Source of the DNA: Ignavibacteriales bacterium UBA1304
Lineage (GTDB): Bacteria > Bacteroidota > Ignavibacteria > Ignavibacteriales > Ignavibacteriaceae
Length of the DNA stretch: 64,000 nt
Reading direction: 5' to 3'
Assembly: GCA_002307295.1 (NCBI GenBank)
Contig: DBTY01000052.1
Location: forward strand, 24,714-88,713
Shown: piece by piece, positions 6,388 to 23,314 of the stretch
Numbering within the stretch: the first letter of the stretch is position 1
How the letters are laid out: every line of letters begins with the position of its first letter
Translations under genes and position numbers: made by a program
The notes under the pieces: model-generated
The model's database searches: none
Seen by the model: only the letters and a program-made list of their open reading frames with translations
Told to the model about the DNA's origin: nothing

Positions 6388-9300
6388 TTATTCTTCCGCT
6401 AACGTGTTATGCTCCGGAGCAAAGCCTAATTTTGCATTAACCTTTGCAAGGCCTTCAATGGCGGACTTATTAGAAGGCGAATTTTTTACTCCCCATTCAA
6501 ACATTGTCTTCGAAGAATCAAATATTCCGGCTGAATAAAACGCCTCGCCCAATCCTGCGCAGGCGCGCGAAGAGGAAGGGACAAGTTTAAGCTCTTCTGA
6601 AAAATAATCTTTCGCGGCGTCTAATTCCCCGGAAACTAATGCAATATTACCAGCTAAGTTCACTACGTCGGGATAATCAAGTTTGTAATTTCTTCTGTTT
6701 GATACATGGAAAGTTTCAGCCGCTATTTTAAACCATTTATTTGCATAAGTAAATTTTTGTTCTTCTGCGTAAGCTATAGCTCTTTCAAACGCCTCAATAA
6801 AAGTATCGTTATTAAGAGGATATTTTATTGGACAGGTCTTAAATTCTTTTCCTTTAATCCATATCTCGTCTGGCGACGCGCCCCATTTATCAGCAAATAT
6901 TTCTCCGTTAATTTTTAGTCTTTCAGCGTAATTGTTTTCGCCGTCCGATTTAAAACTTTTTGAACCATAATGATGGATAAAAACATCCGCCGCTATAACT
7001 GCTTTATAACCAGCAAGCTGAGCGCGCAGGCAATAATCGTCGTCTTCAAAATTACCGGGACTAAAACGCTCGTCCAAGCCGCCAAGCTCTTCAAACGTTC
7101 TTCTTTTTATAAGAGTACATAAGAAGGCGAGTCGCGGAAACTGGGTAATAACGCCTGCATTTTTTGTCTTTGCGTTTTGCGCGTATAGTTCCATTTCCTT
7201 AATAGACGAGTATTTGGCCTGAGAATCAAATTGCGCTCCGCTAACGGAATTGCTGATAGGTCCTACAACCCCAATATGTGGGTCTGATTCGGCTACGTCG
7301 ATTAATCTTTCGAGCCAGCCTTTGGTAACAACTGTATCGTTATTTAATATCAAAACATAAGAGCCCATGGCAGCTTTTATCCCCTGATTAACAGCGGCTG
7401 GGAATCCAAGATTCTCAGCATTAGCTATGACTCTTATTTCCGGATAAATATGTTTAACCTGCGCTATCGTGTCGTCAGATGAAGCGTTATCAATAAGTAT
7501 TATTTCGTAATTAAGTTTTGTGTAGAGCTTAACGCTTTCTATGCACTCTTTGGTATAGTTAAACTGATTAAATGTAACGAGTATAATGCTTACTATAGGA
7601 GGTTCTGAATATGCTAATGCGCGGGATGTTTTAAAGTCTTTGCGCGAAGTAAAACTCAAAAGATGCTGCAATCGTTTACGCATCATTGCGCTGGAAAATT
7701 GCGATGAGATTAATTCTTTCCCTTTTGCGGAAAATGACTCCCACAAAGATTTATCTGTATATAATAATATAGCTTTTTGGGCAAACTCTTTTGGGTCGTC
7801 TGTAATAAATGAATGAACTCCATTAATAATATTCATCCCTTCGGCGCCAATAGAGGTAGAAACCATTGGCAGCCCGTGCGAAAGCGATTGTCCTACTTTG
7901 CCCTTCATACCAGCTCCAAAGCGAAGCGGCGTAACAGTAACTCTGCATTTATTAAGATAAGGCTCAACTTCAGGTACCCAGCCTGTAACAATAATATCGT
8001 CGGAAGAAAGGGCAGTTATTCTTTCAGTGGGGTTATTGCCGACTATATAAAACTTAACGTCTGTTAGTCCCTTCTTAATTAAAGGAAATATTTCATTTAC
8101 AAAATAAAAGACAGCGTCTTCATTTGGGTTGTGGTTAAAGTTGCCTACGAATATAAAATCTTTTCGCTCGTCAAAACCAGAGGCGGAGTCGCGCGCATCG
8201 TGTACGTCGGGGATAACAAACACAGCTTTATCTGCTAAATCTTTTTTAAGAACATCTTTATCCTGCGCCGTAACAGTAAGTACGCAATCAGATTTTGTAT
8301 ACAAAGCAAGTTCTCGTTGTTTTGTCAATGCGGCTTCATTCAGCAGGTTGTTGTCTTTTAATAGATATGCTCTTCTTTGTTCGCGCAGGTAGTGGATATC
8401 AACCGAATCAATAATAACAGGCGTATCAGGGATTTCATTTCTAATCAAATCAATAAAGTAGTCTGCTATATGCCAAAAAGCTATATAAACAAAATCAAAC
8501 TTACGAGCTTTTAATTCAAGACTGCCAATTAATTCTTTAAGTATTGGCTGAACCGAAGGCGTATTGCGAATACCCCACCAGCTTTCGTAGTTGAACCAGT
8601 GAAATTCAACTCCCTGCATTTCGAAATCGTGGAAATATTCAGCGGCTTTTTCATCGGAGTATTGTTTGCCCATCATATGCGCATAAGTAACCTGACAGTC
8701 CAGGTCAATAAGTTGTTTTAAGGTATTGTAATGCCTTAAAGCTCCGGATGCTCTATCGGGCAGGGGAGGGATATCGTCAATGATTAAAATGCGCTTGCCC
8801 TGTTTGCGGTTAGAAAACTGATAAAGAAGTTTGGGAGCGTTGGGGTATTGCAAAGCAAGTTCGCTTTGCCATTTTTCAATAAACTTAGGCGCATTGATAA
8901 TCTGATATCTTTTTAATCCGACAGTAACGTCAGTCCCGTTAGTAACGCCTTCGTAATGGATAACATGAGACGAAGGGCAATAATAAATTTTGTAACCAAG
9001 TTTTCGAATGCCAAAACAGAGGTCGGTATCTTCAAAATATGCGGGAGCAAAACGATAATCAAATCCGTCCAGCTGGTTAAACAAACTGCGTTTAACCATT
9101 AGCGAGGCTCCGGAACAATAATCTACTTCTCTTGCAAAATTATAACGGGCGTCGATAATCTCGCCATTACGGCCGTAGTTCCAGCCGGTAGCGTCGTTAA
9201 AAATAACTCCGCCCGCTTCTTGTAATTTTTTGTTAGCAAAAATAAGTTTAGAGCCTGCGCCGCCTGCATCCGGATAATAAACAAAAATATTATATAAATT

Positions 9301-10044
9301 ATTAAGCCAGTCGGGCATAACTTCAGTGTCGTTATTCAGGAAGAGCACATATTCCGCGTCTGAATGACTAACGCCGATATTATTCCCGCCGATAAAACCC
9401 ACGTTGGAATTAATGCGCACGTATTTAAGCCTTTTGCCAAATGTTTCAAGATATTCTGGCGTTTCGTCAACCGAAGCGTTATCTACGGCAATGATTTCAT
9501 AATTCGGATATTTTGTATTTTTAAAAATTGAAGCGATGCATTTTTTAGTAAATTCAACTTTGTTATAACAGAGCAGTATTATTGATATTTTAGGAAATTT
9601 ATTCTCCTGATTCTGCGGCTTAATAACATCAGGCTGGCTTAAAATAAAATCTAATTTATTATCAACGTTAAATTCTATTTTTTTCGCGGCATCTAACAGA
9701 TAATCTATTATCTGCGGATGATTTTCGGTTTCTTTAGAAAATCTATCATAAAGCATAAAAGCTGATTTGTAATCGCCTTCTTTCTCATATATATTAGCTA
9801 AATAAAAAAGCGAATATAAATTAGCCCGGTCTACCTGCAGCGCGTTGAGGAAGAATTCTTTAGCGGCGGAAAAGATTTCTTTGTGATAATAAAGTCTTCC
9901 AATGCAAAAAAGATTTTCTGCCATTTCAGCGCCGTTAAGCTTGCGGAGTTTAATATCATCCAAAAGCGCAGTCGCCGAGTTTTCATATTTATCGTTGTTA
10001 ATTAGCGATTGAAGTTTGTTAAGCATATCCTCTGTTAAAGGCAT
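6388..10044 (-). CDS. Multidomain glycosyltransferase: TPR - GT2 - GT4-like (GT-B) - GT2 - TPR
   Basis: aa ~40-105 are TPR-like. GT2 no.1 (aa ~152-375) has ISIILLCYN, AVDNASVDET, FLNNDT, FEDTDLC. The GT-B/GT4-like region (aa ~417-795) has FVGNFNHNPNEDA, RFGAGMKGKVGQSLSHGLPMVSTSIGAEG. GT2 no.2 (aa ~816-1035) has VSIILVTFN, LIDNASSDDT, ILNNDT, FEDDDYC. The C-terminal TPR-like region is aa ~1085-1205. Confidence 0.8.
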   Translation of the reverse strand: MPLTEDMLNKLQSLINNDKYENSATALLDDIKLRKLNGAEMAENLFCIGRLYYHKEIFSAAKEFFLNALQVDRANLYSLFYLANIYEKEGDYKSAFMLYDRFSKETENHPQIIDYLLDAAKKIEFNVDNKLDFILSQPDVIKPQNQENKFPKISIILLCYNKVEFTKKCIASIFKNTKYPNYEIIAVDNASVDETPEYLETFGKRLKYVRINSNVGFIGGNNIGVSHSDAEYVLFLNNDTEVMPDWLNNLYNIFVYYPDAGGAGSKLIFANKKLQEAGGVIFNDATGWNYGRNGEIIDARYNFAREVDYCSGASLMVKRSLFNQLDGFDYRFAPAYFEDTDLCFGIRKLGYKIYYCPSSHVIHYEGVTNGTDVTVGLKRYQIINAPKFIEKWQSELALQYPNAPKLLYQFSNRKQGKRILIIDDIPPLPDRASGALRHYNTLKQLIDLDCQVTYAHMMGKQYSDEKAAEYFHDFEMQGVEFHWFNYESWWGIRNTPSVQPILKELIGSLELKARKFDFVYIAFWHIADYFIDLIRNEIPDTPVIIDSVDIHYLREQRRAYLLKDNNLLNEAALTKQRELALYTKSDCVLTVTAQDKDVLKKDLADKAVFVIPDVHDARDSASGFDERKDFIFVGNFNHNPNEDAVFYFVNEIFPLIKKGLTDVKFYIVGNNPTERITALSSDDIIVTGWVPEVEPYLNKCRVTVTPLRFGAGMKGKVGQSLSHGLPMVSTSIGAEGMNIINGVHSFITDDPKEFAQKAILLYTDKSLWESFSAKGKELISSQFSSAMMRKRLQHLLSFTSRKDFKTSRALAYSEPPIVSIILVTFNQFNYTKECIESVKLYTKLNYEIILIDNASSDDTIAQVKHIYPEIRVIANAENLGFPAAVNQGIKAAMGSYVLILNNDTVVTKGWLERLIDVAESDPHIGVVGPISNSVSGAQFDSQAKYSSIKEMELYAQNAKTKNAGVITQFPRLAFLCTLIKRRTFEELGGLDERFSPGNFEDDDYCLRAQLAGYKAVIAADVFIHHYGSKSFKSDGENNYAERLKINGEIFADKWGASPDEIWIKGKEFKTCPIKYPLNNDTFIEAFERAIAYAEEQKFTYANKWFKIAAETFHVSNRRNYKLDYPDVVNLAGNIALVSGELDAAKDYFSEELKLVPSSSRACAGLGEAFYSAGIFDSSKTMFEWGVKNSPSNKSAIEGLAKVNAKLGFAPEHNTLAEE

Positions 10045-10076: not shown

Positions 10077-11021
10077 TTATTTTCGGTAAAGACTACAATA
10101 GTAATCTGCCGCATCGTCCCATGCGTCTGATTCTTTCCATCTTTTTGCTATGCGTGCGGCGTTATTAAAATTTATTCTTTTTAGCGGTTCGGAAAAATCT
10201 GTTTGTTCATTTAATTCAAATTTACATTTAATATTTAATCTTTTAGAAAGCTCCTTTGCAAAACGGGATGTGAACTTCCATTGGCTTTCCGTATAGCCGC
10301 TCGGATTAATTTTAACTATCTGTTTTTTTGATGAAATAAACTCGCTTACAAAATAATTATAAACCTCTGCCAGCAAACTAATGTGAATGTTATCTCTGAT
10401 ATAATCAGGAGTATTGACGCCGGGCGTTTTATCTTCAAACCAGTTTTTAACCAGATAATTTGTAAACCGCGGTTCCTCAAAAGGACCGAACGGATTTGGT
10501 ATAACAAACTTGCCGAGTTTAACATTTTTAATCCTGCAGTAATATTCAAATATCTGCCAGGTTAAACCTTTTGAAAAACCATAAGGAGAAAACGCTGCGA
10601 GCGGTTTATTCCCTTTCCCTTCGTTTTGTTCAAATACGCTTCCGGTAAGTATAACGCCTCTGATTTTGCCTTCGTTAATTATATCAAGCGTTTGAGAAAG
10701 ATTATGAGTATTATTTTGTATGGCGGAGTTAACGTCAAACTCAAAACTTTTATAATTTCTTACATCAGCCGCATGATGACATAAAAGATCAAAGCCGCTT
10801 GCGCTTTCTAAAAGGCGCAAAAAATTATTATCTCCAAACGAGCAGTTAAAAACAGGTCTGCTAATTCTCACTATCCTCAAGACTCGCTCTTTGCGAATCC
10901 CTTCATAGTCGTCCGGTTTGTTTTTGGTAAAGGTCGTATAAACATTATGTCCGGCTTCAGAAAGAGTTTTTACAAACCAGTAGCCGGTAAATGAAGATGC
11001 GCCTGTGAATAAAATGTCCAT
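10077..11021 (-). CDS. NAD-dependent epimerase/dehydratase/reductase (extended SDR)
   Basis: N-terminal Rossmann motif ILFTGASSFTGYW and catalytic YGFSK (YxxxK). The reaction step cannot be assigned by eye. A 4-reductase role is inferred only from its position after the RmlC-like gene. Confidence 0.7.
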   Translation of the reverse strand: MDILFTGASSFTGYWFVKTLSEAGHNVYTTFTKNKPDDYEGIRKERVLRIVRISRPVFNCSFGDNNFLRLLESASGFDLLCHHAADVRNYKSFEFDVNSAIQNNTHNLSQTLDIINEGKIRGVILTGSVFEQNEGKGNKPLAAFSPYGFSKGLTWQIFEYYCRIKNVKLGKFVIPNPFGPFEEPRFTNYLVKNWFEDKTPGVNTPDYIRDNIHISLLAEVYNYFVSEFISSKKQIVKINPSGYTESQWKFTSRFAKELSKRLNIKCKFELNEQTDFSEPLKRINFNNAARIAKRWKESDAWDDAADYYCSLYRK

Positions 11022-11023
11022 AA

Positions 11024-11569
11024 TTATTTCAGATGATAGTTTTCGTTAAAGTCAGGGTGATTTTTATCTTTCTCCGATATAATTACCGGTTGAATAGGCC
11101 ACTTAATATTAATCGCAGGGTCGTTCCAGCGCAAGCCTCTTTCGTATTGCGGAGCGTAAAACTCCGTTACTAAATAAAACGCTTCGGAGTTGTCGGTTAA
11201 CGTTATAAACGAATGCGCAAAGCCTTTGGGAACATAAAGCATTGTACGGTTGTCCTCGTTGAGCTCCACGCCGAACCATTTTAAAAACGTATCGGATTCT
11301 TTTCTTAAGTCAACGATAACATCGTAGAAAGAACCTTTGAGGCATCTGATTATTTTAGTCTCCGCTTTAGGAGCTAATTGGTAATGTATACCGCGGAGAG
11401 TCCCTTTATCTTTGCTGGTAGAATTATTTATCTGGACAATCTTATTATCAAGTCCAAGTTTTTCAAATTCATTAACGCAAAAGAAACGGGCAAAAAAACC
11501 TCTATCGTCTCCGCGTTTTTCAAGGTCAATTGTATAAGCCCCTTTAAGAGGCGTTTCAGTAAAAATCAT
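11024..11569 (-). CDS. NDP-4-dehydro-6-deoxyhexose 3,5-epimerase-like cupin (RmlC/RfbC family)
   Basis: RmlC-family pattern: TPLKGAY, DDRGFFARFF, LRGIHYQ, KIIRCLKGSFYDVIVDLR, VPKGFAHSF. Size ~180 aa. Confidence 0.8.
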   Translation of the reverse strand: MIFTETPLKGAYTIDLEKRGDDRGFFARFFCVNEFEKLGLDNKIVQINNSTSKDKGTLRGIHYQLAPKAETKIIRCLKGSFYDVIVDLRKESDTFLKWFGVELNEDNRTMLYVPKGFAHSFITLTDNSEAFYLVTEFYAPQYERGLRWNDPAINIKWPIQPVIISEKDKNHPDFNENYHLK

Positions 11570-11584: not shown

Positions 11585-12574
11585 CTATTTTAATCTTTCT
11601 TTCAGCGCTTTTAGGCGGATATATTTTGAGCCTTCAAAATCAGCCAGGCTGAATTTATTTTTTATGAATTTTTTGTGAAGCTCTTCCATCCCAGAATCAA
11701 GGTTATAGGAAAGTTTAAAATTTGGAAGCAGCTTATACAGCAGATCAAAATTCACCCTGTAATTTCTTGGATCGGAACCAACCTCTCCTGTAAAAACAAC
11801 GTTAGCGTTTGGAATAAGTTTCTTTACTTTATTAGCCACGTCCTTTACCTGATAGTTTTCTGAGTTCGCGCCGATATTTATCGAGCGGTTATGCACGTCT
11901 TCTCTGGGAGCTTTAGCCAAAGCTATAAAAGCTCTTGCAATATCGCGGCAGTGAATAAGCGGACGCCATGGCGTTCCGTCGCTCATAATCCTAATATCTC
12001 CGCGCGTAAACGCGCACGCCAAAAGATTATTAACTACAAGGTCAATTCTTAACATAGGGGAATATCCATAAGCGGTTGAATTCCTTAAAATGATTGGAGA
12101 AAAATCAGCGTCGGCAAGTTTTTTAATTCCGGTTTCAGCGTCAACTTTGGAAATTGCGTAAGCTGAAACAGGATTAAAATTAGCCGATTCGTCTAAATCT
12201 AATTTTTCGCCTTTGCCATAAACAGAGCAGCTGCCGGCAAATAAAAACCGCCCAACTCCAGCATGTTTAGCCATTTTGGCCAGATTAATAGACCCGTTTC
12301 TGTTAATATTGTAAGTGAGCGATGTGTTAATATCGCCCATTGGGTCGTTTGATATAGCGGCTAAATGCATAACGCAATCGTAGCCTTCTAAATCGTCAGG
12401 CGTAAGCGTTCTTATATCTTTATCCAATTCGATATCCGCTTTTACAAGAGGTTCAAATTCGCAGCCTTCATAAAAGGAAAGGTCGCATCCGGTGACGCTA
12501 TGCCCTTCCTGTTTTAGTAAATCAACTAAATGGCTGCCAATATATCCTTTGTGTCCGGTTACAAAAACTTTCAT
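11585..12574 (-). CDS. NAD-dependent epimerase/dehydratase family protein (GalE-like extended SDR)
   Basis: ATG at 12574 (MKVFVTGHKGYIGSHL) preferred to the upstream ATG at 12619, which would overlap rfbF. GSCSVYG ... YAISK catalytic Ser/Tyr/Lys. Lacks the acidic dyad or SDKCY signature of NDP-hexose 4,6-dehydratases. Confidence 0.75.
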   Translation of the reverse strand: MKVFVTGHKGYIGSHLVDLLKQEGHSVTGCDLSFYEGCEFEPLVKADIELDKDIRTLTPDDLEGYDCVMHLAAISNDPMGDINTSLTYNINRNGSINLAKMAKHAGVGRFLFAGSCSVYGKGEKLDLDESANFNPVSAYAISKVDAETGIKKLADADFSPIILRNSTAYGYSPMLRIDLVVNNLLACAFTRGDIRIMSDGTPWRPLIHCRDIARAFIALAKAPREDVHNRSINIGANSENYQVKDVANKVKKLIPNANVVFTGEVGSDPRNYRVNFDLLYKLLPNFKLSYNLDSGMEELHKKFIKNKFSLADFEGSKYIRLKALKERLK

Positions 12575-12587
12575 AATAATTACTCCG

Positions 12588-13382
12588 TTAAATAACTTTC
12601 CATGGCGCATTTCCGGCATTCCATAACGAGTTGAGATAATCGCGGTCGCGCTGAGTATCCATGCAGCTCCAGAAGCCTTTGTGCTTGTACATATTTAATT
12701 CTCCATCTTTAGCCAATCTGACTAACGGTTCTTTCTCAAGGACGCATTCATCGTCTTTAGAAAGATACTTAAGAAATTCTTTTTTGAAGAAAAAATATCC
12801 TCCGTTAATCCAATTGTCTGTAAAGTCTGGTTTTTCGGCAAATTCAAGAACTTTGTCGTCGTCCAATTTAATTTCGCCAAAACGGGAAGGCGGATTTACG
12901 CCAAGGACGGTTCCGGTTTTGTTGTTTGAAAAATGATAATAATATTCTTCGCCTAGATTAGCGTCAGTCAGACCGTCGCCATAAGTAACCGCAAAATGAT
13001 CTGCAGCGCCAAGATATTTTTCCGCCGCTCTGGCAATGCGGGCTCCGGTCATTGTATACTCGCCTGTATAAGCAAGCGTAACTTCCCAATCTAAATTGTG
13101 ATCTATCGAGTGCACTGTTACGTTATTGCTTTTAAGGTCGACGGTAAAATCGCTGTTGAGCGACGTATAGTTAAGGAAATAAGATTTAATTATTTCCGAT
13201 TTAAAACCCGTGCAAAGAACAAATTTTATAAATCCATATTTCCTGTAATATTTCATAATATGCCAAAGCACCGGGAAATTGCCTATCGGTACCATTGGTT
13301 TTGGACGGAACTCAGTTTCTTCTTTCAATCTGGTCCCTAGGCCTCCGCATAAAATAAATACCGGAATTTCATTAATTGTCAT
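12588..13382 (-). CDS. rfbF: Glucose-1-phosphate cytidylyltransferase
   Basis: Near full-length by-eye alignment with Salmonella/Yersinia RfbF/DdhA: ILCGGLGTRLKEET..PKPMVPIG..P.LWHIMK.Y, TGARIARA (cf. TGGRLKR), TYGDGLTD, PPSRFGEI, EKP, INGGYFF, GFWSCMDTQRD, LW..G.APWK. Confidence 0.9.
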   Translation of the reverse strand: MTINEIPVFILCGGLGTRLKEETEFRPKPMVPIGNFPVLWHIMKYYRKYGFIKFVLCTGFKSEIIKSYFLNYTSLNSDFTVDLKSNNVTVHSIDHNLDWEVTLAYTGEYTMTGARIARAAEKYLGAADHFAVTYGDGLTDANLGEEYYYHFSNNKTGTVLGVNPPSRFGEIKLDDDKVLEFAEKPDFTDNWINGGYFFFKKEFLKYLSKDDECVLEKEPLVRLAKDGELNMYKHKGFWSCMDTQRDRDYLNSLWNAGNAPWKVI

Positions 13383-13437: not shown

Positions 13438-16400
13438 TTACCAATTTGTTAACGCAAGAACATTTTCTTTAGTTAGTATTCTAAATAAATTTTCATTTAA
13501 TAAATAATTTTGCAAATGAGAATTGTCTACATTTAACGAACTGTTATTCCCGCCGCATTCGTTGCAGTAGGGAATATCTTTTGTCTCCAAATCTTCAATT
13601 TCTTCTTTATAACTTTTATTGTCGGAAAAACTTTGTCTTGCTAAAAAGTACATGCTGGAATTAAACAGCTCCTCGCTGGAATTATGCTTCAGCAAACCAG
13701 GGAAAATAAGATTCCTGTTTTTTGTAGGAGGCGCGCAGCAGGGAATAATATTCCCGTGAGCGTCCATAACAATATTCTTGTATAGCCATTCGCATGTATA
13801 TTTATTTTCGGGCTCGCTTTTGCTTAATTCATTTTGCGGAAAACTGTTGAGCAAGGTCGTCCATGTTTTTTCCGGCTGATAATTTAATTCCACATTATTA
13901 TGAGACTCTTTTTCCCATTTATCAGAGCTGTTGTTCCAGTTGCGCAGAAAGCTAATCCGCTTGCTTAAGCTTTTTACCTCAGCCGGAATTGTAATTTCAG
14001 GATCGGCGGCGCTGACGTCAAAAGGCGTTGCAAGATTTATTTCGTCAATCCCAATTTCTTTGGCAGTATTTACTGCTAAATCTATTTCGTGTTTATTGTG
14101 GTTAAATATTAAAAACTGCCAGACTAAAGTAGGCTTGGATAAACCGTACTTCTTTTTGGCTTCAACAAGCTTTTTCATATTCTCCATAACAAGCTCAAAC
14201 TTTCCGCCTTTTCTGTATTTTTCATAAGTCTTTGCCGAAGCTCCGTCTACTGAAAAGACTAGATAATCCAATCCGGAATTAACGATAGCTTCCGCGTCTA
14301 TAGGCAGCGATAGGTTAGTAGAAAGAGAAGTAAATAGTTTGTATTCCTTTGCAAGGGCAATGAACTCAGGCGTTTGTTTATTGATAAATGGTTCGCCGTA
14401 ATTAAAAAATAAAATATGAGTAGCGTAAGGGCCAAAGCTATTCAGGTATTTTTTATACGTCTCTAGAGATAGCAGCCCATTTTCCCAAAGGAAATCTTTT
14501 TTATCCTGAACGTCGTGCAAACATCCGGGGCAGTGCAAATTGCATCCGTTTGAGGGATCAAGTAGCAGACCGAACGGCTTTGCAAGCATATAATTATGTT
14601 TTCTGAAATACTGATATTTTAATACAAGTAAGTTTGTAATTTTAGCAATAAATAAATTAGCGTCGGTAGCAGAACTAAAAGAGCCTTTTAGCGCCTGCGT
14701 AAGATTATCAGTTAATTTATCAATATGATCGATGAACGAAAAAATATTTCCTGCGCTATAAGTCATAATATCAGCTTCATGTATTATGTTATTAACGTAA
14801 AGCGCATTATCAATAGGCGCATTGATATTTCCGTTTAAGGCAAATACGTATTCAATATTTTCTTTTGCCGCAATATTTCCTGGATCGGCTAACAAAGCTT
14901 TGTTAAAATAACGTAAAGCCTCGTAAGGATTATTTTCTAATATCTCAATTATACCCATATCATTTAGCGCGTCCGGATTATCCGGAGCTATGCTAAGAAG
15001 TTTATCTAATATTTTTCTTGCTCCGCTAAAATTTTTCTGAACTAATATCTTTTCCGCTTCGACAATCATTTTTTGAATATCGTTTTTCCTGAAAGCCTGG
15101 AAGTTAAATGCATCCTTCGTTAAGTCCTTATCATCGTTCTTATTTTTAGGGATAACCGGGGCGGCGGTTTTACTGCAGGGAATAATTTCAGCTTTTAGCG
15201 ATTTAACATAAACTGACAACTCGCGCAGATCGCTATTAATATTTAAATCGCGCGGGATAAAACTACCTGAAGATTCAATCGTAATTTCATATTCCGGCTC
15301 TGTGCCGTCAATTGCTATTTCAACCGGCGCGGTTTGGTAATTATTTTTTAACTCAATTTTATTTGTAACGACGTCGTTAACTTTTATAGTTATTACAAGC
15401 GGAGACGTTTTGTAACAGGCCATGGCCATATTTGTCACAGTAAACGAAATTACTGCCGCATTGTTTAGCGTAATGAAAAATTTTCCTTTTTTTGCAATCC
15501 ATCTGATACCGTTTTCTTCCGGATAAAACCCTTCTGCAAATGCGCAGCTAATTCCGCTTTCTTTATCCGAAATAATTTCTGAAGGTTTTACAATGTATTT
15601 GTTCCATGCAATTATTGATTTCAGGACAAAATTTTCTGAGAAATCCATTCCATCCGCTAGGCATTTTTCTATTTCTTTCTTCCAGCGCCATGTAATTAAA
15701 TCAGACTGCCAATAATCGGGAGAAAAATGGTAAGGATAAAAAACTCCCCCGTTCATGTCTCTGCTTTTTAAAAGAGTATAATGCCGTTCTAAAATATCAG
15801 CTCTTGTTTTTAAAACCGGGGAGTAAAACGAACGAACGTCTTTATTAATCATAAATGAAGTACGTATTCGTTTGCCCAATTCGCTTTCAGTATTTGAGTG
15901 GCTGATTATGCTGGACAAAAACTCTGCCGGTAAAACCGAGCATGCATACCCATGTCTTTCAAGCAAAGCATCGGAAAGGTACTTTGCGGTATTGGCGCTC
16001 CAGTCGCTAATGAAAAAAACTTTTCCTGCGTAAACGCCTGCAAATCTATCCGGGCTTTTAACCGTATAACCAAGCTGAACTAATTTATCTTTTAACAGAA
16101 AAATCAATTCATACATGATTGTTTCGGCCTCGGCAAAAAGCGGCTGCAACTGTTCCAGATTTTCTGTTTCTGAATAAGTAAACCAATTCTTAAACAGCTG
16201 AACAGAGTTATTAATAAAAGCGCCGACGCGGTCAGGCAGAACAATTTTGTTCATCTCCATTATTTTAACAGAAAGAGAAAGCGATTTCATTCGCATAAGA
16301 TGATTTCTTACAGATAATTCCTTCTTTTGCATTTCTTCCATAAACTCAATCGGGAATTCCATCAGAAATAGTTCGACTAAATTAATCAACTGATTTTCAG

Positions 16401-18243
16401 GCGGAGCCTGCTGCGGCGCCAATGGCGGCGCCTGGTTAGACACAGTTTGTAAAATATCGTCGCCGTAAATATGCACAAGGCTAAATGTGGGATGCAGCCA
16501 TGATATTTGACTGAGCAATTCTGCATTAATAAATGCAGAAGGCGGATGCTTAATTACATAACGTTCCTGTTCGCTTAAACTGAAAAAAGAATCAATGCAG
16601 AGCTTTAATTCATTCTTGCCGAATTTATCATTTATAACAATAATAAAATCCATATCTGAAAGTCCGGGAACGGAAACCGTGCCCATCTGATAAATACTCT
16701 GTATGCCGCCGCATTGAACAATAGTATCCACATATTTCTTTTTTACTGAATCGTAAAAATCCATTTCAAATTTTTGCGGAAAATCAGTTAGGAGGTACGA
16801 CGCGCCGTTTATCTCAGCAAAGCAATTAGACTCGTTTTGGTTCTCTTTGGAAATGGAACCTGATTCATCTGAAATAAAATTAGCCCAAAGGTCGCCTTCG
16901 CCTCCGGCGCATTGAGGCAGATGTAATAACTCGTCTTCCCATATATCATTAGTAGAAAGGAATTTTTGTTTTTCATTTTCAAACAGAGTCTCAATTAGTT
17001 CGGCCGAACGCCCAAGCATATCCGGATAGAGCTCTCTCTTTAACCATTCAGGAATATCAACCTGCATGTCATGCCCGGCGATATCTTCGTCGGCTTCTTT
17101 AAGCGCTTTAATATATAAATTACTATTTCTAAGTTTAGTCGCCTGTTCTATCAGGCTGTATAAATTATCAGGAATTTCTTTTCGTAATAAAGTATACAGA
17201 TGCTTTTTATAAATAAAAGCGCCGTGCAGTTCATAATAAAATATGGGCATTAGCAGCGCAACCTGAACGTATTGTTTTAGCGCGAATAAATCAGAAGGGA
17301 AATTTCCACATATCCAATCGTGACGCATTCCATACGTAATATTCCAAAAATCTGTTCGTCTTTCTATTAATGAAGGACGGATTGAATAATTAAGGTAATT
17401 ATCCGCAGCATATAAAACTTTTGAATAATCCATCAGCACAAGCGGAAGCCAGGTCTGCGGAAAATATTTCATGTCCTGCTCTGTGTAAACGTATATGCCG
17501 TGGTGCTGAAACGGATCAATCTCTTTGAATAAATTACTGATGACTTTGTTTTTTGCTCTCAGCTCTAAAAGCGCTGAAGGAGAAACGGCAGTTTGCCGAT
17601 TTAAAATAGCAAGCGAATCGCAATCGCTTGAACCATAAACATAATCTAAAGTGGCAAGACTGCCATGCAGCAGAAAGCAGGAGAGATACTGTTGTAAGTC
17701 AATTACTAAATCGTTTAATTCAGTAAGAGAGCCAAGTAAAACAGGTTCGTCTAAATATTCTTTAGCGTCAAATTCAGGTATTTCGTCAATATCAATTGTG
17801 ACTGCTCTTGTTCCTGCTGGAAGAATAATATTTTCAAATTCTTTATAAAATAGTGAAATATACTCGGCGGCCGAAGTTTCTGATATCCTAAGCTCCGCAG
17901 AATACTTGCCAATCCACGATCTTAATTGTTCAAAAGAGTTTGGAGTATACGCGCAAAGAATATTTATTAGCTTAGCCGCTTTATCTAAATTCAGGCGCTT
18001 TACTTCTATATCGCTGTTGTTATCGGCGTCGTTTAGATAAAACTGTAAAAGCCCATGAAAGAGATTTTGCAGCTGCGATAAAATTATTTCGACAGGGGAG
18101 AGTAATTTGAATACCGGAGCCGTATTAAAGTTTTCTGGATTTGAAATTATAAATTCGCCCGGATCAGAAAATAAATTTAATATCTGCTCGTCATCTTTAA
18201 GGAATTTATCTCCAGTTCTTTTATAGCTGTTTTTATCTGGCAT
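13438..18243 (-). CDS. Giant multidomain protein: 2x Pol-beta-type nucleotidyltransferase-like modules + beta-sandwich + TPR + radical-SAM with SPASM-like C-terminus
   Basis: Uninterrupted 1601-codon ORF. Its ATG lies 6 nt after the upstream stop. Motifs: HGSLATLDYVYGSSDCD (aa 193-209, nt 17617-17667) and GTVSVPGLSDMD (aa 521-532, nt 16648-16683). GFYPEENGIRW...DLRELSV spans aa ~905-1017, and TPR-like repeats span aa ~1055-1130. CNLHCPGC (aa 1234-1241, nt 14521-14544) comes with YGEPF, STN and SVDG. The cysteines C1484, PCC(1502-1503) and CNEC(1560-1563) are SPASM/twitch-like. Confidence 0.7.
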   Translation of the reverse strand: MPDKNSYKRTGDKFLKDDEQILNLFSDPGEFIISNPENFNTAPVFKLLSPVEIILSQLQNLFHGLLQFYLNDADNNSDIEVKRLNLDKAAKLINILCAYTPNSFEQLRSWIGKYSAELRISETSAAEYISLFYKEFENIILPAGTRAVTIDIDEIPEFDAKEYLDEPVLLGSLTELNDLVIDLQQYLSCFLLHGSLATLDYVYGSSDCDSLAILNRQTAVSPSALLELRAKNKVISNLFKEIDPFQHHGIYVYTEQDMKYFPQTWLPLVLMDYSKVLYAADNYLNYSIRPSLIERRTDFWNITYGMRHDWICGNFPSDLFALKQYVQVALLMPIFYYELHGAFIYKKHLYTLLRKEIPDNLYSLIEQATKLRNSNLYIKALKEADEDIAGHDMQVDIPEWLKRELYPDMLGRSAELIETLFENEKQKFLSTNDIWEDELLHLPQCAGGEGDLWANFISDESGSISKENQNESNCFAEINGASYLLTDFPQKFEMDFYDSVKKKYVDTIVQCGGIQSIYQMGTVSVPGLSDMDFIIVINDKFGKNELKLCIDSFFSLSEQERYVIKHPPSAFINAELLSQISWLHPTFSLVHIYGDDILQTVSNQAPPLAPQQAPPENQLINLVELFLMEFPIEFMEEMQKKELSVRNHLMRMKSLSLSVKIMEMNKIVLPDRVGAFINNSVQLFKNWFTYSETENLEQLQPLFAEAETIMYELIFLLKDKLVQLGYTVKSPDRFAGVYAGKVFFISDWSANTAKYLSDALLERHGYACSVLPAEFLSSIISHSNTESELGKRIRTSFMINKDVRSFYSPVLKTRADILERHYTLLKSRDMNGGVFYPYHFSPDYWQSDLITWRWKKEIEKCLADGMDFSENFVLKSIIAWNKYIVKPSEIISDKESGISCAFAEGFYPEENGIRWIAKKGKFFITLNNAAVISFTVTNMAMACYKTSPLVITIKVNDVVTNKIELKNNYQTAPVEIAIDGTEPEYEITIESSGSFIPRDLNINSDLRELSVYVKSLKAEIIPCSKTAAPVIPKNKNDDKDLTKDAFNFQAFRKNDIQKMIVEAEKILVQKNFSGARKILDKLLSIAPDNPDALNDMGIIEILENNPYEALRYFNKALLADPGNIAAKENIEYVFALNGNINAPIDNALYVNNIIHEADIMTYSAGNIFSFIDHIDKLTDNLTQALKGSFSSATDANLFIAKITNLLVLKYQYFRKHNYMLAKPFGLLLDPSNGCNLHCPGCLHDVQDKKDFLWENGLLSLETYKKYLNSFGPYATHILFFNYGEPFINKQTPEFIALAKEYKLFTSLSTNLSLPIDAEAIVNSGLDYLVFSVDGASAKTYEKYRKGGKFELVMENMKKLVEAKKKYGLSKPTLVWQFLIFNHNKHEIDLAVNTAKEIGIDEINLATPFDVSAADPEITIPAEVKSLSKRISFLRNWNNSSDKWEKESHNNVELNYQPEKTWTTLLNSFPQNELSKSEPENKYTCEWLYKNIVMDAHGNIIPCCAPPTKNRNLIFPGLLKHNSSEELFNSSMYFLARQSFSDNKSYKEEIEDLETKDIPYCNECGGNNSSLNVDNSHLQNYLLNENLFRILTKENVLALTNW

Positions 18244-18249
18244 ATTGTC

Positions 18250-18756
18250 TCACTTTATCGCTCTAAGAAAAAATTCTATACTGCCGACTACGTTAAAAAA
18301 ATGTCGTCTGGCATATTCCTTAACAATTGCAGTTTTATTCTCCCATTCCGGGAAGTAGTTATATTTAACATTTTCAGTCCTAAACCTTGCTTTAGTCGTT
18401 TCGTTAGCCGAACCGACTAATTTCCCTTCTTCAAAAAACAGAAAACTGTGTTCGTTGAAATGGACATGGTGATAAGGATTTACAAGATTATATTCCATAC
18501 TTGTAATATAAGGGACTCCAATATGAACAAGCGCGTCAGGCGCGGCAACGCGCCATAGTTCTTCAATTACGTATAGATAATTCTGGCTGTGTTCAATTGA
18601 ATGCCATGCGAGAACTTCATCAAAAAAATTATCGTCAAAAGGCCATTTATCCTTATCCATATCAAAATGGACGTCGGCTTTTAGATTAGAATTAATATCG
18701 GCGTTAATATAGTCGTCAATATATTTTGTTCCGCATCCTAAATGAAGTTTATTCAT
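18250..18756 (-). CDS. Class I SAM-dependent methyltransferase (small, Methyltransf_11-like)
   Basis: ATG at 18756 (MNKLHLGCG) has a GAGGA RBS 7 nt upstream and avoids overlap with the upstream gene, so the track start at 18792 was rejected. Motif I LHLGCG, then INADIN and AWHSIEH. Confidence 0.65.
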   Translation of the reverse strand: MNKLHLGCGTKYIDDYINADINSNLKADVHFDMDKDKWPFDDNFFDEVLAWHSIEHSQNYLYVIEELWRVAAPDALVHIGVPYITSMEYNLVNPYHHVHFNEHSFLFFEEGKLVGSANETTKARFRTENVKYNYFPEWENKTAIVKEYARRHFFNVVGSIEFFLRAIK

Positions 18757-18772
18757 AGCGCAATCCTCATAA

Positions 18773-20689
18773 TTATTTAGTCCGCCCATCAAATAAATTG
18801 CTAAACCCGCGTCTTCCGCTCATATAATCTTTATCGCGCGCAGGCGCTACGGGAGAGGACGCGTCGGCTAAATATTGCAAACTCCAGCCGACATCTAAGG
18901 CTATTTTGCCTAAATGTTTTTTTATACGCCCGGCAAGTATTTTACCCGTTATGCTTGCCGCAATAATAGCTATGTCAAAATCATATTCCTGAACTTCTTC
19001 CCACAGTTTATCTAAACTGCCAAAAGCCTCCGCGCCTGAATGAGGCGTGTAAATGGCTCCTGCTAATTCTGGTTTTGACTGGGGCATGCCTGCTGATTTA
19101 AATGATTCCCTGTAGTCGTCGTTTTGCAAAAGCCGTGCAAATTTTACAGCGGCGTTTCCAATCAACAATATTTTGCCTTTGCTTAAAAGAGGCAATAAAT
19201 AACCCTGGTCTAAAAGCTCCGCGTTAATTACTACGTCAAATTCGTTTTGTAAATAAACATTATGCTGATGGTATGCTGCAAAAGTTTTATCAGTATCGGC
19301 GCTCCATTGTGCGTTAACGGTTTTTCTGTGAGAACCAAGTATATCGGCTTCAAGCAAGATATCAAAATATTCCTTTTGCGCTTCTGTAAAAACGTTTGTC
19401 TGTAGCGCGCATGGATTTAATCCAAGATTTTTCTCTAGAACTGCGGCTTCCGTTTGTAAATCCAGACGTTCAATATCAATTTTGCCGTAAGCCAAAAATC
19501 TTGCTTCAATATCGCCTATGCGAACCATCGAAAAAGGAAGCTTAGCGGCAATAGCCGCATATAGTTTTTCAATAATAATTTTTACGCGTTCATGCGTATA
19601 ATATTCATTAAAGAATCCCGACGTAAATACTTCGGGCGATTTTAAATCATCATTCGTAATAGCAGGCGTTTGTAAATCCGCCGATATATTTTTAGCAATA
19701 AGATTGATTCTCTTGTTTCCTGCTCCGTCTTTTTCGTCTGTAATGTAGAGTCTTTCAATTTCAAATTTACTCCCAAAGTTATTTCTTATTTTATCTTCAT
19801 TATAAAAAGCTACATGGGCCGGATCAGGGAACGATTTTTCAAACGGACAGTGAATAATTAAATATCCCCCCGGCTTTAACGCGTTTGAGATTTTATCTAA
19901 TACCAGAGGAAGGTCCTCTTCATAAATGTGCTCCAATACGTCAAACGCTATAACGCTGTTAAAATACTTTGGCGGAAGCTGCATATCTGCAAAAGTAGAA
20001 TTGCAGTAGCTGATTCTTTGCGCTATTTCTGGGGGCTCGTTTGCTCTTATTTTAATTGCGCCGTTTATGGCGTCAGTCTGAATATCAACCCCATAGACAA
20101 AATGCCCGTTGCGGGCAAGTATGACGCTATTGAGGCCAAGATTACAGCCCAGGTGTAAAACGGTTGCGCCAAGTTTGGCTCTAAACGTTTTAAGCAGTTT
20201 ATAATCGTGATGGTTATACCGAAAAGCAAAATCAAGCGGAATTAAATTCTTTTCTTTCGCTAAGTATTGGGCGTTAAGCGCTGTTGTCTTAAAGCTGTCC
20301 CTGGGTAAGCCATACAGTATATTCTTATAATCTGGTTTCTTTTTTATTTGACGGGAAAAATATTCAATGGCTTTCTTGCAGCCGGATTTATCCTTTTGAA
20401 GGAATGATGTTTTAATAAAATCCCAATAAAAAGAATCTAGCTCGTAATCAGTCCTTTTTTCCGATTCATACAGGTTAATTAATTCAGAAAGGACTTTATG
20501 TTTATTATCTCCATTCCTAAGAGCAAGTCTTAAATGCTCTTCGTAATTATTATAATCCAGTCCATCCGGAATATCATTTAGCGCATAATTTACCGGCGAA
20601 AAAATGCCGTCAGGGTTTGTTTCTAAGCCTGATTTCGAGTTTAGCCCGGCGATATTAGCGTTAGTTCCAAATAAGTCGGAGGAAGACAT
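18773..20689 (-). CDS. Fusion protein: N-terminal unknown region + class I SAM methyltransferase + C-terminal GT-D/DUF1792-like putative glycosyltransferase domain
   Basis: Methyltransferase at aa ~175-285: VLHLGCNLGLNS, VYGVDI, AFDVLEHI, LKPGGYLII. C-terminal aa ~365-610: SMVRIGDIEARFL, KILLIGNAA, DIAIIAASITGKILAGRIKKHLGKIALDVG, resembling my recollection of the DUF1792 (RFGDGE ... Gp.a..la ... aiDiG) pattern. The C-terminal call is tentative. Confidence 0.55.
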   Translation of the reverse strand: MSSSDLFGTNANIAGLNSKSGLETNPDGIFSPVNYALNDIPDGLDYNNYEEHLRLALRNGDNKHKVLSELINLYESEKRTDYELDSFYWDFIKTSFLQKDKSGCKKAIEYFSRQIKKKPDYKNILYGLPRDSFKTTALNAQYLAKEKNLIPLDFAFRYNHHDYKLLKTFRAKLGATVLHLGCNLGLNSVILARNGHFVYGVDIQTDAINGAIKIRANEPPEIAQRISYCNSTFADMQLPPKYFNSVIAFDVLEHIYEEDLPLVLDKISNALKPGGYLIIHCPFEKSFPDPAHVAFYNEDKIRNNFGSKFEIERLYITDEKDGAGNKRINLIAKNISADLQTPAITNDDLKSPEVFTSGFFNEYYTHERVKIIIEKLYAAIAAKLPFSMVRIGDIEARFLAYGKIDIERLDLQTEAAVLEKNLGLNPCALQTNVFTEAQKEYFDILLEADILGSHRKTVNAQWSADTDKTFAAYHQHNVYLQNEFDVVINAELLDQGYLLPLLSKGKILLIGNAAVKFARLLQNDDYRESFKSAGMPQSKPELAGAIYTPHSGAEAFGSLDKLWEEVQEYDFDIAIIAASITGKILAGRIKKHLGKIALDVGWSLQYLADASSPVAPARDKDYMSGRRGFSNLFDGRTK

Positions 20690-21570: not shown

Positions 21571-23103
21571 TTATTCGAAATTTTTATTCCTTAGTCTTAA
21601 ACTGTCAAAACTTATCTTCATATTATGGCCGATAAATAAGGCTAAATTGTTCTCATATGGAAGCGCATATTTTGAAACTGCCAAACCTGCAGAATCAACT
21701 TGCTCAAATAAGCGTTCATAGGATTTTTTCGTGTTGCCCATTACAATTACCGTAGCGAGCGGTTTCACGTCAGCGCACCATATCCAATAGTTATTATGAA
21801 ACGAAATAGCAGGCGGGAGTTCATATTTCGAGGCAAAATACTCAACGGCTCCTGCTTCGCCATAGTTATTACAAAAAACGACGCATTTCTTTTGTTCATC
21901 GGAGGGAAGGCTTTTGTATACTTTTGATACCTCCGCAGCCAATTCTTCCCATCCGTGCATATCTGCATAAAACTGTGGGAGCTCCGAAACCTTTTTCCCT
22001 TCAACAGACGACGGTTTCTGACCGACAATTTCCTGGTACCTGATAAATGACTCTACAGGGAGTACGGGCAGAGCAAGCGGAATTAAAAAGATTCCGGTAA
22101 TCCAGATAAGAACTATAATAAGATAATTAAAGCTTTTCCATGTAATATTCTTAGCCTGGCTTTCAAGAAATACGCCTCCTCCGGCAAACAGGGCTGAATA
22201 TGCAACTGCCAGATACTCCGACTTACTTTTCCCATTAAGGAGAAGTATAAGGAAAGTAACAGTGAAAATAATTCCAAGGTAGCGGAATTTCTTCCCATAA
22301 GGAGTAAATAGAAAGAAGTAAAGACCCGCAATCCAAACAGGAAGAGCGGCAGGGCCGTTTAATAATATTTGTCCCTTAATAAAATCAATCCGCGTAATTC
22401 CGGAATACTTATGAGCGATGGCATTATGCATAAATTCAAGAATGGCAAAATTGTTGTTCAGATTCCATATTATATATGGAAGGAAAATTAAAAAACTTAT
22501 TCCGGTCATAATAAGGAAATCCCGGGTAAATAGTTTTTCCCGTTTTTCTGAAAGAACCAGAGCCGCTACAAATCCGGCGATAAACCAAAGCATGCTTATT
22601 TTATTTAATGTTCCAAGTCCAAGAATAACTCCCATTATTATCCAATCGCTTTTTTTATCCTCTTCAAATATTTTTATTGCAAAATAATATGCCGCGGACC
22701 AAAAAAGGATATCGATGCTGTTCATTGAATAAATTGTATTCATCCCAAGCAGAATAGGGGCAAATGTTACTGAAGTAAGAGAAATTACAAGAGCCGTTAT
22801 TCCGCCGCCCATCCGTTTAGTAATCAGTCCCGTAATGAATACTGTAAACGCCGAAAAAACGGCGGGGAAAAGGCGTAAAGCAAATACCGAATCGCCAATT
22901 GCTAATCTGCCCAAAGCAAGCAGCCAGATAGAAAATGGAGGCTGATCTACATAACCTGCCGATAAATGTTTACTGCAGGCTATATAATACATTTCATCCC
23001 TGAAAATGCCATAATTGCAGAAAAGATCAGAATAAATATGGATTAAAAACACAAGAGCGGGGAACCCCCAAAGAAGAACTCTCTCTTTTTTGTTAAAATT
23101 CAT
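21571..23103 (-). CDS. Membrane glycosyltransferase, GT39/PMT_2 (ArnT-like) family
   Basis: ATG at 23103 (MNFNKKERVLLWG) preferred to the TTG-type start at 23142. Polytopic membrane protein with the family N-terminal loop motif FRDEMYYIACSKHLSAGYVDQPPFSIWLLAL and a soluble C-terminal domain. Confidence 0.8.
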   Translation of the reverse strand: MNFNKKERVLLWGFPALVFLIHIYSDLFCNYGIFRDEMYYIACSKHLSAGYVDQPPFSIWLLALGRLAIGDSVFALRLFPAVFSAFTVFITGLITKRMGGGITALVISLTSVTFAPILLGMNTIYSMNSIDILFWSAAYYFAIKIFEEDKKSDWIIMGVILGLGTLNKISMLWFIAGFVAALVLSEKREKLFTRDFLIMTGISFLIFLPYIIWNLNNNFAILEFMHNAIAHKYSGITRIDFIKGQILLNGPAALPVWIAGLYFFLFTPYGKKFRYLGIIFTVTFLILLLNGKSKSEYLAVAYSALFAGGGVFLESQAKNITWKSFNYLIIVLIWITGIFLIPLALPVLPVESFIRYQEIVGQKPSSVEGKKVSELPQFYADMHGWEELAAEVSKVYKSLPSDEQKKCVVFCNNYGEAGAVEYFASKYELPPAISFHNNYWIWCADVKPLATVIVMGNTKKSYERLFEQVDSAGLAVSKYALPYENNLALFIGHNMKISFDSLRLRNKNFE

Positions 23104-23235
23104 AATGAAACTTTTTTTATGTGTGATCTGATAATTTAACAAAAATTGGGTAACAATTTGTACTTTTTTACATGAAAGGAGTAAATAGTTTAAAACATAT
23201 TTTGAGAATAATCAAAAATTCCGTAATTTTACGCC

Positions 23236-23308: not shown

Positions 23309-23314
23309 CAAGTC

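Follow-up and report, generated by a model that had tools for sequence, protein, structure and literature searches.

WsaE, WbdD, WbbB and the capsule polymerases that contain tetratricopeptide repeats (TPRs) are large soluble proteins, encoded in polysaccharide operons, that combine tailoring domains such as a methyltransferase or a kinase with interaction modules. Among radical S-adenosylmethionine (SAM) enzymes, BlsE has a nucleoside-sugar as substrate, DesII a TDP-sugar and BtrN an aminocyclitol, and a full SPASM domain has about seven cysteines, including the motif CX2CX5CX3C. SPASM domains hold two auxiliary clusters, and the twitch is a truncated SPASM holding one, with four cysteine ligands in BtrN and three in MoaA (PMC9012708; PMC10470005). 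Multi-domain capsule polymerases have also been described alongside LicD-type enzymes (PMC2794190; PMC11666461). Here we analyse a 64,000-nt stretch of DNA (the window) from Ignavibacteriales bacterium UBA1304 (contig DBTY01000052.1), and within it the gene for a protein of 1601 amino acids (aa) that carries a pair of nucleotidyltransferase-like modules, A and B, followed by an all-beta domain, TPRs and a radical-SAM unit. With slightly better than even confidence, we read this protein as a soluble cytoplasmic multi-enzyme, fused from three units, whose tailoring is directed at a sugar polymer or at the CDP-sugar from which the polymer is made.

One uninterrupted open reading frame (ORF) of 1601 codons plus a stop codon spans 13438..18243, as a first-pass annotation of this DNA had claimed. 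The strand, which that annotation did not state, is the minus strand (read from 18243 to 13438), because translation of the plus strand is full of stops. A gap of 6 nt to an upstream methyltransferase gene had also been reported, and the coordinates agree: the small methyltransferase-like ORF ends in TGA at 18252-18250, and the large ORF begins with ATG at 18243-18241. All of the motifs that had been listed were found at the residues given for them. Thus HGSLATLDYVYGSSDCD is located at aa 193-209, GTVSVPGLSDMD at aa 521-532 and CNLHCPGC at aa 1234-1241; GFYPEENGIRW starts at aa 905 and DLRELSV finishes at aa 1011; and YGEPF, C1484, C1502/C1503 and C1560/C1563 are also present. The quoted motifs are not chance matches, since their key residues are invariant or conserved in family alignments. 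The parts of the protein are as follows.

13438..18243, minus strand: whole ORF, 1601 aa plus stop; identical protein on four contigs
16834..18243, minus strand: module A, aa 1-470; invariant residues, PF01909 in relatives, AlphaFold2 model, Foldseek
15724..16824, minus strand: module B, aa 474-840; invariant residues, hhalign to A, AlphaFold2 core
15559..15723, minus strand: clade-specific segment, aa 841-895; conserved in four orthologues, model pLDDT (predicted local distance difference test) <50
15181..15558, minus strand: all-beta domain (module C), aa 896-1021, GFYxxExGxRW...RELSV; model
14836..15081, minus strand: TPR region, aa ~1055-1136; PF14559, five helices (H161-241) in the model
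14605..14814, minus strand: helical N-terminal extension of the radical-SAM family, aa 1144-1213; conserved in stand-alone relatives, three long helices in the model
13984..14568, minus strand: radical-SAM core, aa ~1226-1420 (C1234-x3-C1238-x2-C1241; YGEPF); PF04055, Foldseek
13441..13806, minus strand: twitch-like auxiliary-cluster domain, aa ~1480-1601; five cysteines

The ORF is confirmed as a real gene. Four contigs from NCBI, JGI and Logan assemblies carry the identical 1601-aa protein, and the whole architecture is shared, at 43-46% identity, by a protein of 1724 aa from another organism (P0002, found on seven contigs). The N-terminus MPDKNSY is kept in four of four orthologues and the guanine-plus-cytosine content is uniform over the operon; on these grounds we discount an assembly artefact. 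A reading of modules A and B as membrane proteins was dropped: no strongly hydrophobic 19-residue window is present in the 1601-aa protein, in which the Kyte-Doolittle maximum is 1.32.

Module A opens with an N-terminal helical region, which leads into a Pol-beta-type core at aa ~167-290 and then a helical domain that contains K323, Y345-K346 and R372; the linker that comes after it (aa 437-472) is disordered. When 92 module-A sequences were aligned, G194, S195, D207, D209, D243, H248, P267 and K346 proved to be invariant. In an AlphaFold2 model of aa 1-900, built with 69 sequences (mean pLDDT 85, with module A mostly above 90), H193-G194-S195 supplies the hG[GS] motif where strand E187-193 finishes, and the metal-binding pair D207/D209 and a third carboxylate, D243, are in place together with strands E209-214 and E250-254. 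The query module itself has no Pfam match, only its relatives matching nucleotidyltransferase families: of the 92, 62 matched PF01909 (best E 2.4e-7), 26 matched PF18765 (Polbeta) and 15 matched Adenyl_cycl_N. Nucleotidyltransferases were also among the best, sub-significant matches of the module-A profile to PDB sequences, namely ANT(3'')/AAD(9), 2rff, 1ylq, CdnD, KNT and DrrA, all aligned at the motif; the 2rff- and 1ylq-type matches are two archaeal minimal nucleotidyltransferases. A Foldseek search of aa 1-900 against the PDB gave AadA/ANT(3'')(9), AAD(9), LinB, the MNT antitoxin, CdnE and ANT(4'), with probabilities of up to 1.0 and a template-modelling (TM) score of ~0.5 on the target over ~280-300 columns. 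Catalysis by module A is argued for because every catalytic residue is invariant across the 92 diverse sequences.

Module B has a diverged nucleotidyltransferase-like core followed by a helical or mixed domain. Across 14 module-B sequences G521, G527, S529, D530, D532, Y562, H566 and R646 are invariant, and in the model the core runs helix-strand-strand-helix (H494-509/E514-520/E532-537/H543-554), with the G[GS] and DxD motifs in place. No invariant Asp or Glu beyond the DxD was found in these 14 sequences that could be a third catalytic carboxylate. H566 lies 34 residues past D532, which is the same spacing as between D209 and D243 in module A; hhalign, however, sets H566 opposite H248 of module A and not opposite D243. 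It can be seen in the model of aa 1-900 that a core of helix, strand (G[ST]), strand (DxD), helix and strand is common to A and B, with helices after each, and hhalign aligned the two cores with 84% probability (E 7e-6). Two tandem nucleotidyltransferase modules, each followed by a helical region, had been predicted from the motifs. For module A the prediction is well supported, by PF01909 in most of its relatives and by the AadA/ANT fold, and we assign it as a Pol-beta-type nucleotidyltransferase with a helical domain. For module B the case is weaker: the G[ST] and DxD motifs, the core and the hhalign result support it, whereas the third carboxylate is replaced by His566. We conclude that it is reasonably supported that B is a diverged paralogue of A, nucleotidyltransferase-like with a changed catalytic residue.

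The segment at aa 841-895 is kept in the four orthologues and absent from the wider family. Beyond it, an AlphaFold2 model of aa 896-1601 (56 sequences, pLDDT 85) places ten strands and zero helices in aa 896-1020, so the beta-sandwich that had been suggested for aa ~905-1017 agrees with the model and aa 896-1021 are likely to adopt that fold. Two copies of module C also form the C-terminal part of P0139, a GT4 glycosyltransferase. A match of this region to EF-P in the PDB sequence search (E 0.12) was weak and was treated as chance. The TPR-like stretch noted at aa ~1055-1130 corresponds to about 2.5 TPRs, with PF14559 (TPR_19) scoring above its cut-off (26.2 bits versus 25; E 1e-5) and five helices modelled at aa ~1056-1136; by fold this region resembles OGT and SPINDLY.

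The radical-SAM assignment, which had been made from CX3CX2C and YGEPF, is borne out by PF04055 (E 5e-14, 53.2 bits versus a cut-off of 29.5). Past the core the C-terminus holds exactly five cysteines, C1484-x12-G-x4-C1502-C1503 ... C1560-x2-C1563, each conserved to 90% or more among 56 radical-SAM relatives. The first-pass annotation had likened this region to SPASM/twitch domains. Its cysteine positions were right and the twitch part of the claim fits; a full SPASM domain is not present, as there are only five cysteines and PF13186 (SPASM) scored 18.6 bits, below its cut-off of 21.5. Because CX2CX5CX3C is reduced to CX2C and the cysteines total five, no second auxiliary cluster is expected. 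The number and spacing of the cysteines (C-x17-C ... C-x2-C) and the fold matches to BtrN and MoaA fit the twitch pattern, and the domain is thus predicted to be twitch-like with one auxiliary cluster. Foldseek with aa 896-1601 returned BlsE first (2e-9), followed by SuiB, DesII (4e-8), PqqE, MoaA, viperin, BtrN (6e-6) and EpeE, and BlsE was a weak sequence match too. Several of these closest folds act on nucleoside-sugars, NDP-sugars, nucleotides or cyclitols and not on peptides.

Named NCBIfam radical-SAM equivalogs did not claim the protein; the best, TIGR04317, reached 90.6 bits against a cut-off of 380 and the others were lower still, those below cut-off including the models for W-cofactor maturase, PqqE, NirJ, AhbD, MoaA, BlsE and HpnH. 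The radical-SAM part instead belongs to an unnamed family of stand-alone proteins of ~450-490 aa, with which it shares 36-44% identity, and a tblastn search of plasmids found radical-SAM relatives only. Its closest paralogue examined adjoins genes for a 1569-aa multi-glycosyltransferase and a methyltransferase. The closest stand-alone paralogues, P0160 and P0162, are each preceded by a conserved protein of 530-535 aa without a Pfam domain (L006 6363-7970 and L007 6409-8001), which may be an unrecognised partner. We also looked for the hallmarks of a ribosomally synthesised and post-translationally modified peptide (RiPP) system. Neither a PqqD/RRE-like domain (RRE, RiPP recognition element) nor a precursor peptide gene was detected in the 1601-aa protein or the operon, no small conserved ORF was seen, and the 1-kb gap upstream of the PMT_2 gene described below holds a tRNA-Lys gene and no peptide gene; this reading was dropped.

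When 5.8 billion clustered proteins were searched for the N-terminal module of ~1020 aa, only four were found to carry it, P0001 (the 1601-aa protein) to P0004, and the operon order is conserved at all four of their loci. This agrees with the earlier statement that the architecture has no characterised counterpart, as does the finding that no curated Pfam or NCBIfam family covers aa 1-1050. A profile search of 185,579 GTDB species representatives gave no orthologue of the 1601-aa protein, JGI metagenomes yielded the P0002 contig only, and searches of PDB sequences with the whole protein and with a four-sequence N-terminal profile returned only TPR, radical-SAM and the chance EF-P matches. The tails of the four proteins differ. 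In P0001 and P0002 the module is followed by TPRs and radical SAM, and in P0003 and P0004 by TPRs and a class-I methyltransferase (Methyltransf_24, with or without Methyltransf_11). The loci of P0003 and P0004 (L003 and L004) have a separate TPR-radical-SAM gene directly downstream, and the product of the one in L004, a protein of 561 aa, matches aa ~1055-1601 of the 1601-aa protein with 48% identity along 552 residues. Since the sister loci keep separate genes, the 1601-aa protein is a fusion of the N-module gene with the downstream TPR-radical-SAM gene in which the methyltransferase tail was lost. P0002 still carries two blocks of TPRs, which is what an in-frame joining of the two genes that cost the methyltransferase would leave, and the junction of in-frame linker and TPRs aligns colinearly. 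The 1601-aa protein is therefore less a single invention than a joining of three units, each of which is found as a gene of its own elsewhere. As side observations, Por_Secre_tail genes neighbour the sister loci, and in L003, which is on an ENA contig, the radical-SAM, cytidylyltransferase, SDR (short-chain dehydrogenase/reductase) and epimerase genes (14346-16869 and 16884-19678) are split into several short ORFs, probably by long-read frameshift errors or else by real decay of the locus.

The A-B pair has a much wider distribution than the fusion. A HMMER search with the four-sequence profile against 1.84 billion representatives (50% clustering, E <=1e-3) matched 2278 proteins and divided the N-terminal region into three evolutionary units, A (~1-470), B (~480-850) and C (896-1021). 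Module A occurs as stand-alone proteins of roughly 400-470 aa and module B as ones of ~380-415 aa, and about 45 of the best 147 matches outside the clade are A-B tandems, some of them fused to GT4, GT2 or TPR domains. The module-A profile gave one protein in a word-index search. In all 23 genome loci retrieved with the module-A profile, B is fused to A or close to it (within 300 nt in 22 and at ~0.9 kb in L014); these come from Woesearchaeota, Nanoarchaeota, Methanosarcinales, Nitrosopumilaceae, Nitrospirota, Spirochaetes, Desulfobacterales, Patescibacteria and Sumerlaeota. Over 102 loci B is fused to A or lies within 300 nt of it in 87, and the figure is 83 of 91 among loci in which 1 kb or more of sequence follows the A gene.

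These pairs lie in glycan biosynthesis loci. In three loci annotated with Pfam the gene directly upstream of A encodes a Wzx-type flippase, and A-B is surrounded by glycosyltransferases, sugar-nucleotide enzymes and B12-binding radical-SAM proteins. When Wzx-like and B12-radical-SAM genes were scored with home-made hidden Markov models, a Wzx-like gene adjoined A in 46 of the 102 loci; among the 61 loci that reach 10 kb or more, the same was true of 34, and 25 had a B12-radical-SAM gene. Most of the A-B loci examined have sugar genes of the UDP/GDP type and not cytidylyltransferases. The A-B pair is covered by no Pfam or NCBIfam model, and a literature search turned up no relevant paper on the family or its context. 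We also observed that Wzx flippase, module A and module B form a recurring triad in polysaccharide clusters (L008-L110, for example L017 6563-10389, L009 6232-10137 and L012 6287-10173) of DPANN archaea, Methanosarcinales, Nitrospirota, Patescibacteria and others; genes for B12-binding radical-SAM proteins are often close by.

In the window, the gene for the 1601-aa protein stands in an operon that contains three methyltransferase domains and at least five glycosyltransferase domains. The genes around it are listed here.

21571..23142, minus strand: PMT_2, GT-C type membrane glycosyltransferase; also upstream in L004
20916..21419, minus strand: rubrerythrin; upstream neighbour kept in the window, L001, L003 and L004
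18773..20689, minus strand: methyltransferase fused to a GT-D-fold glycosyltransferase, 638 aa; in all four loci
18250..18792, minus strand: small class-I methyltransferase-like gene; 168-aa equivalent in L004
12588..13382, minus strand: glucose-1-phosphate cytidylyltransferase-like gene; TIGR02623 298.3 bits versus cut-off 300.25
11585..12619, minus strand: extended SDR, candidate NDP-hexose 4,6-dehydratase or epimerase
11024..11569, minus strand: RmlC-type 3,5-epimerase; TIGR01221 190 bits versus cut-off 155.75
10077..11021, minus strand: SDR, candidate 4-ketoreductase
6388..10044, minus strand: 1218-aa TPR-GT2-GT4-GT2-TPR multi-glycosyltransferase; exactly 1218 aa in L001 and L004
6334..6379, minus strand: terminator-like hairpin with a 20-bp stem, closing the operon
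5804..6328, plus strand: GDSL/SGNH hydrolase, convergent neighbour; all four loci

The cytidylyltransferase-like gene lies 55 nt downstream of the large ORF and, to judge from gene content, the operon would make a CDP-6-deoxyhexose by way of the cytidylyltransferase, an SDR, the 3,5-epimerase and a second SDR.

The analysis above establishes which domains are present, how the fusion arose, that A and B are paired as genes and that their setting is one of glycan synthesis. From homology and context alone we infer the function of the 1601-aa protein, and the donor, the acceptor and the chemistry proposed for each domain are to be read in that light. By analogy with the dimeric ANT enzymes, A and B, which we take to be an obligate pair, could form a pseudo-heterodimer in which A is catalytic. 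With an NTP as donor, this dimer would place a nucleotidyl group on a hydroxyl or phosphate of a sugar in a nascent or lipid-linked glycan; less likely, it would pass on a phospho-substituent from a CDP-activated donor. The radical-SAM unit, like DesII, BlsE and BtrN, would abstract hydrogen from a sugar carbon of the CDP-6-deoxyhexose or of the polymer, and the sugar might thereby be oxidised, epimerised, decarboxylated or deoxygenated. For the beta-sandwich a role as a carbohydrate-binding module is probable, and the TPRs probably serve as docking sites for partner enzymes, namely the methyltransferases and the triple glycosyltransferase. Extending the proposal to the family, it is possible, although we put this forward only tentatively and as clearly less probable, that the A-B pair is an unrecognised and widespread class of glycan-modifying enzyme which acts on lipid-linked repeat units before Wzx flipping and installs a nucleotidyl or phospho-linked substituent, and which in this Bacteroidota clade has gained an exchangeable catalytic tail, either a new twitch-type radical-SAM sugar enzyme or methyltransferases, to give a modular tailoring megaenzyme.

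Several observations weigh against the tailoring role that we favour. The A, B and radical-SAM families are all biochemically uncharacterised, and we know of no bacterial glycan with a stable nucleotidyl substituent, so that a nucleotidylated product would have to be an intermediate or something new. The Foldseek E-value was only ~0.035 for a query of 900 aa and the output does not state which module was aligned. Direct Pfam support for module B is almost absent (one of 14 members matches Polbeta and one of 14 NTP_transf_2), its profile returned nothing meaningful against PDB sequences, and B may be a non-catalytic pseudoenzyme. The peptide-acting SuiB, PqqE and EpeE are also among the top fold matches of the radical-SAM part, and TPRs also suit protein substrates. 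Lastly, no Wzx, Wzy, ABC exporter or initiating phosphoglycosyltransferase is encoded in the window, and the locus therefore does not define the acceptor.

An alternative that keeps the glycan context is that the protein is a phosphotransferase of the LicD/fukutin type, taking a CDP-hexose or CDP-alcohol as donor, passing sugar-phosphate or alcohol-phosphate to the glycan, releasing CMP and making a phosphodiester-linked, teichoic-acid-like polymer. The cytidylyltransferase-like gene 55 nt downstream would fit this, and LicD-family enzymes of nucleotidyltransferase fold use CDP conjugates in capsule and teichoic acid synthesis (PMC11666461; PMC2794190). We nevertheless consider it unlikely: the query has no PF04991 match at E-values up to 1, LicD is absent from the 25 families listed (of 28) for the 92 module-A relatives, FKRP is not in the top 50 fold matches, which ANT enzymes dominate, and the prevalence of UDP/GDP-type sugar genes over cytidylyltransferases at A-B loci does not suit a CDP donor. 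A protein could also be the substrate, being recruited by the TPRs, AMPylated by the nucleotidyltransferase modules in the manner of MNT- and DrrA-type enzymes, cross-linked or epimerised by the radical-SAM unit in that of SPASM/twitch peptide maturases, and glycosylated by the glycosyltransferases. The TPRs of both the 1601-aa protein and the 1218-aa glycosyltransferase, with their likeness in fold to OGT and SPINDLY, would be consistent with this, as would SuiB, PqqE and EpeE among the radical-SAM matches, MNT and DrrA among the nucleotidyltransferase matches, and a locus without an exporter. Set against it are the lack of a detectable PqqD/RRE-like domain and precursor peptide gene, the single auxiliary cluster implied by the cysteine pattern, the sugar-acting BlsE and DesII among the top matches, scores far under the cut-offs of the NCBIfam maturase models (for example 90.6 against 380), and the adjacency of A-B to Wzx flippases in lipid-linked glycan clusters of archaea and bacteria, and we rate it as rather improbable. 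The first-pass annotation had proposed a protein- or glycan-directed multi-step modifier and leaned towards peptide and protein maturation. The glycan-directed role is favoured and the lean towards maturation is not, because BlsE, DesII and BtrN are among the best fold matches and every genomic context examined is one of glycan biosynthesis.

It is slightly more doubtful still that module B, or both modules, are non-catalytic, such that the N-terminal 1000 residues act as a scaffold, a chain-length ruler or a substrate-binding platform for the glycosyltransferases and for the radical-SAM domain (in sister loci, the methyltransferase domain), in the manner of terminator or ruler proteins such as WbdD. 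The C-terminal catalytic domain is indeed exchangeable (radical SAM in P0001 and P0002, methyltransferases in P0003 and P0004) and module B is without a third carboxylate; however, the catalytic residues of module A do not vary in 92 diverse sequences, B keeps an invariant DxD and His, and stand-alone A-B pairs exist without any fused catalytic domain. Finally, an assembly or frameshift artefact that joined ordinary separate genes might be suspected from the occurrence of the radical-SAM part as a separate gene in two sister loci, but the same protein was recovered from three sources on four contigs, a second species has the same fusion on seven contigs, and the junction of in-frame linker and TPRs aligns colinearly with uniform composition, which leaves this explanation barely credible.

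Several further features of the operon and the window were noted. The hairpin at 6334-6379 has a perfect stem with T-runs on both sides and, lying between convergent genes, resembles a terminator that works in both directions. The final 20 nt of the methyltransferase/GT-D gene are shared with the small methyltransferase-like ORF, for which TTG is the sole start listed; the gene caller of the JGI contig makes the product of this small ORF 179 aa. The conserved upstream rubrerythrin may protect or supply an oxygen-sensitive Fe-S enzyme. A scan for sigma-70 promoters was uninformative (70 found versus 60 expected). The tRNA-Lys (CTT) gene, at 23236-23309, sits in the 1-kb gap between PMT_2 and fucose-utilisation genes, and the regions 24140-41327 and 46177-53240 are dense in genes for the use of fucose and host glycans: FGGY kinase, class II aldolase, L-fucose isomerase, a major facilitator superfamily transporter, GH95, two GH29 fucosidases, GH2, GH20, GH92 and GH94. 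A SusC-like TonB receptor is encoded at 59804-62785. The rest of the window consists of glycan-degradation genes typical of glycan-foraging Bacteroidota; its SusC-like and glycoside-hydrolase genes, together with the Por_Secre_tail genes beside the sister loci, point to a source in that phylum.

Each domain of the protein falls in a known superfamily and none in a characterised family. We regard the A-B pair as a more general and more interesting lead than the rare fusion (four proteins in 5.8 billion): once its reaction is defined, thousands of genes in surface-glycan loci could be annotated, and the work could reveal a new type of glycan substituent or activation step. The fusion indicates that a radical-SAM or methyltransferase step goes together with the action of the pair, and the radical-SAM family may extend the short list of radical enzymes that act on nucleotide-sugars or glycans.

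Among known systems, the ANT-type enzymes AadA/ANT(3'')(9), AAD(9), LinB and KNT/ANT(4') are the best fold matches of the N-terminal 900 aa and the best profile-sequence matches of module A. They share the layout in two parts, in which a helical domain comes after a Pol-beta core with GS, DxD and a third carboxylate, and they modify hydroxyls of sugar-like substrates. A and B differ from them in that identity is ~10-12%, each has a length of ~400 aa and a large additional helical region at the N-terminus, they form a heterologous pair and not a homodimer, and they are found in glycan biosynthesis loci and not in resistance cassettes; the likeness is at the level of fold only, as the query has no PF13427/DUF4111 match at E-values up to 1 to the AadA/ANT(3'') family profile. 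LicD, fukutin and FKRP (PF04991) share with this system the nucleotidyltransferase fold and a part in glycan or teichoic-acid assembly with CDP donors (PMC2794190; PMC11666461), and here a cytidylyltransferase-like gene is adjacent. In contrast to these proteins, however, A and B have neither the sequence-profile match nor a place for the family among their top fold matches.

With the SPASM maturases (SuiB, PqqE, anSME and the sactisynthases) the 1601-aa protein has in common the CX3CX2C core and the first half-motif C-x12-G-x4-C, whereas it has CX2C in place of CX2CX5CX3C and neither an RRE/PqqD domain nor a precursor gene was found. BlsE, DesII and BtrN, like the radical-SAM part, have a partial TIM-barrel core with a C-terminal extension, and the four-cysteine, one-cluster twitch of BtrN resembles the C-terminal cysteine pattern seen here (PMC9012708). 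Identity to these three enzymes is 12-16%, and the radical-SAM part differs from them in its own ~70-aa helical N-terminal extension, its CC pair at 1502-1503 and its membership of a separate, unnamed family. To our knowledge none of WsaE, WbdD, WbbB and the TPR-containing capsule polymerases has a nucleotidyltransferase-fold pair or a radical-SAM domain; a likeness to multi-domain proteins of the WsaE/WbdD type is seen in the sister-locus proteins P0003 and P0004, which have methyltransferase domains where the 1601-aa protein has its radical-SAM part.

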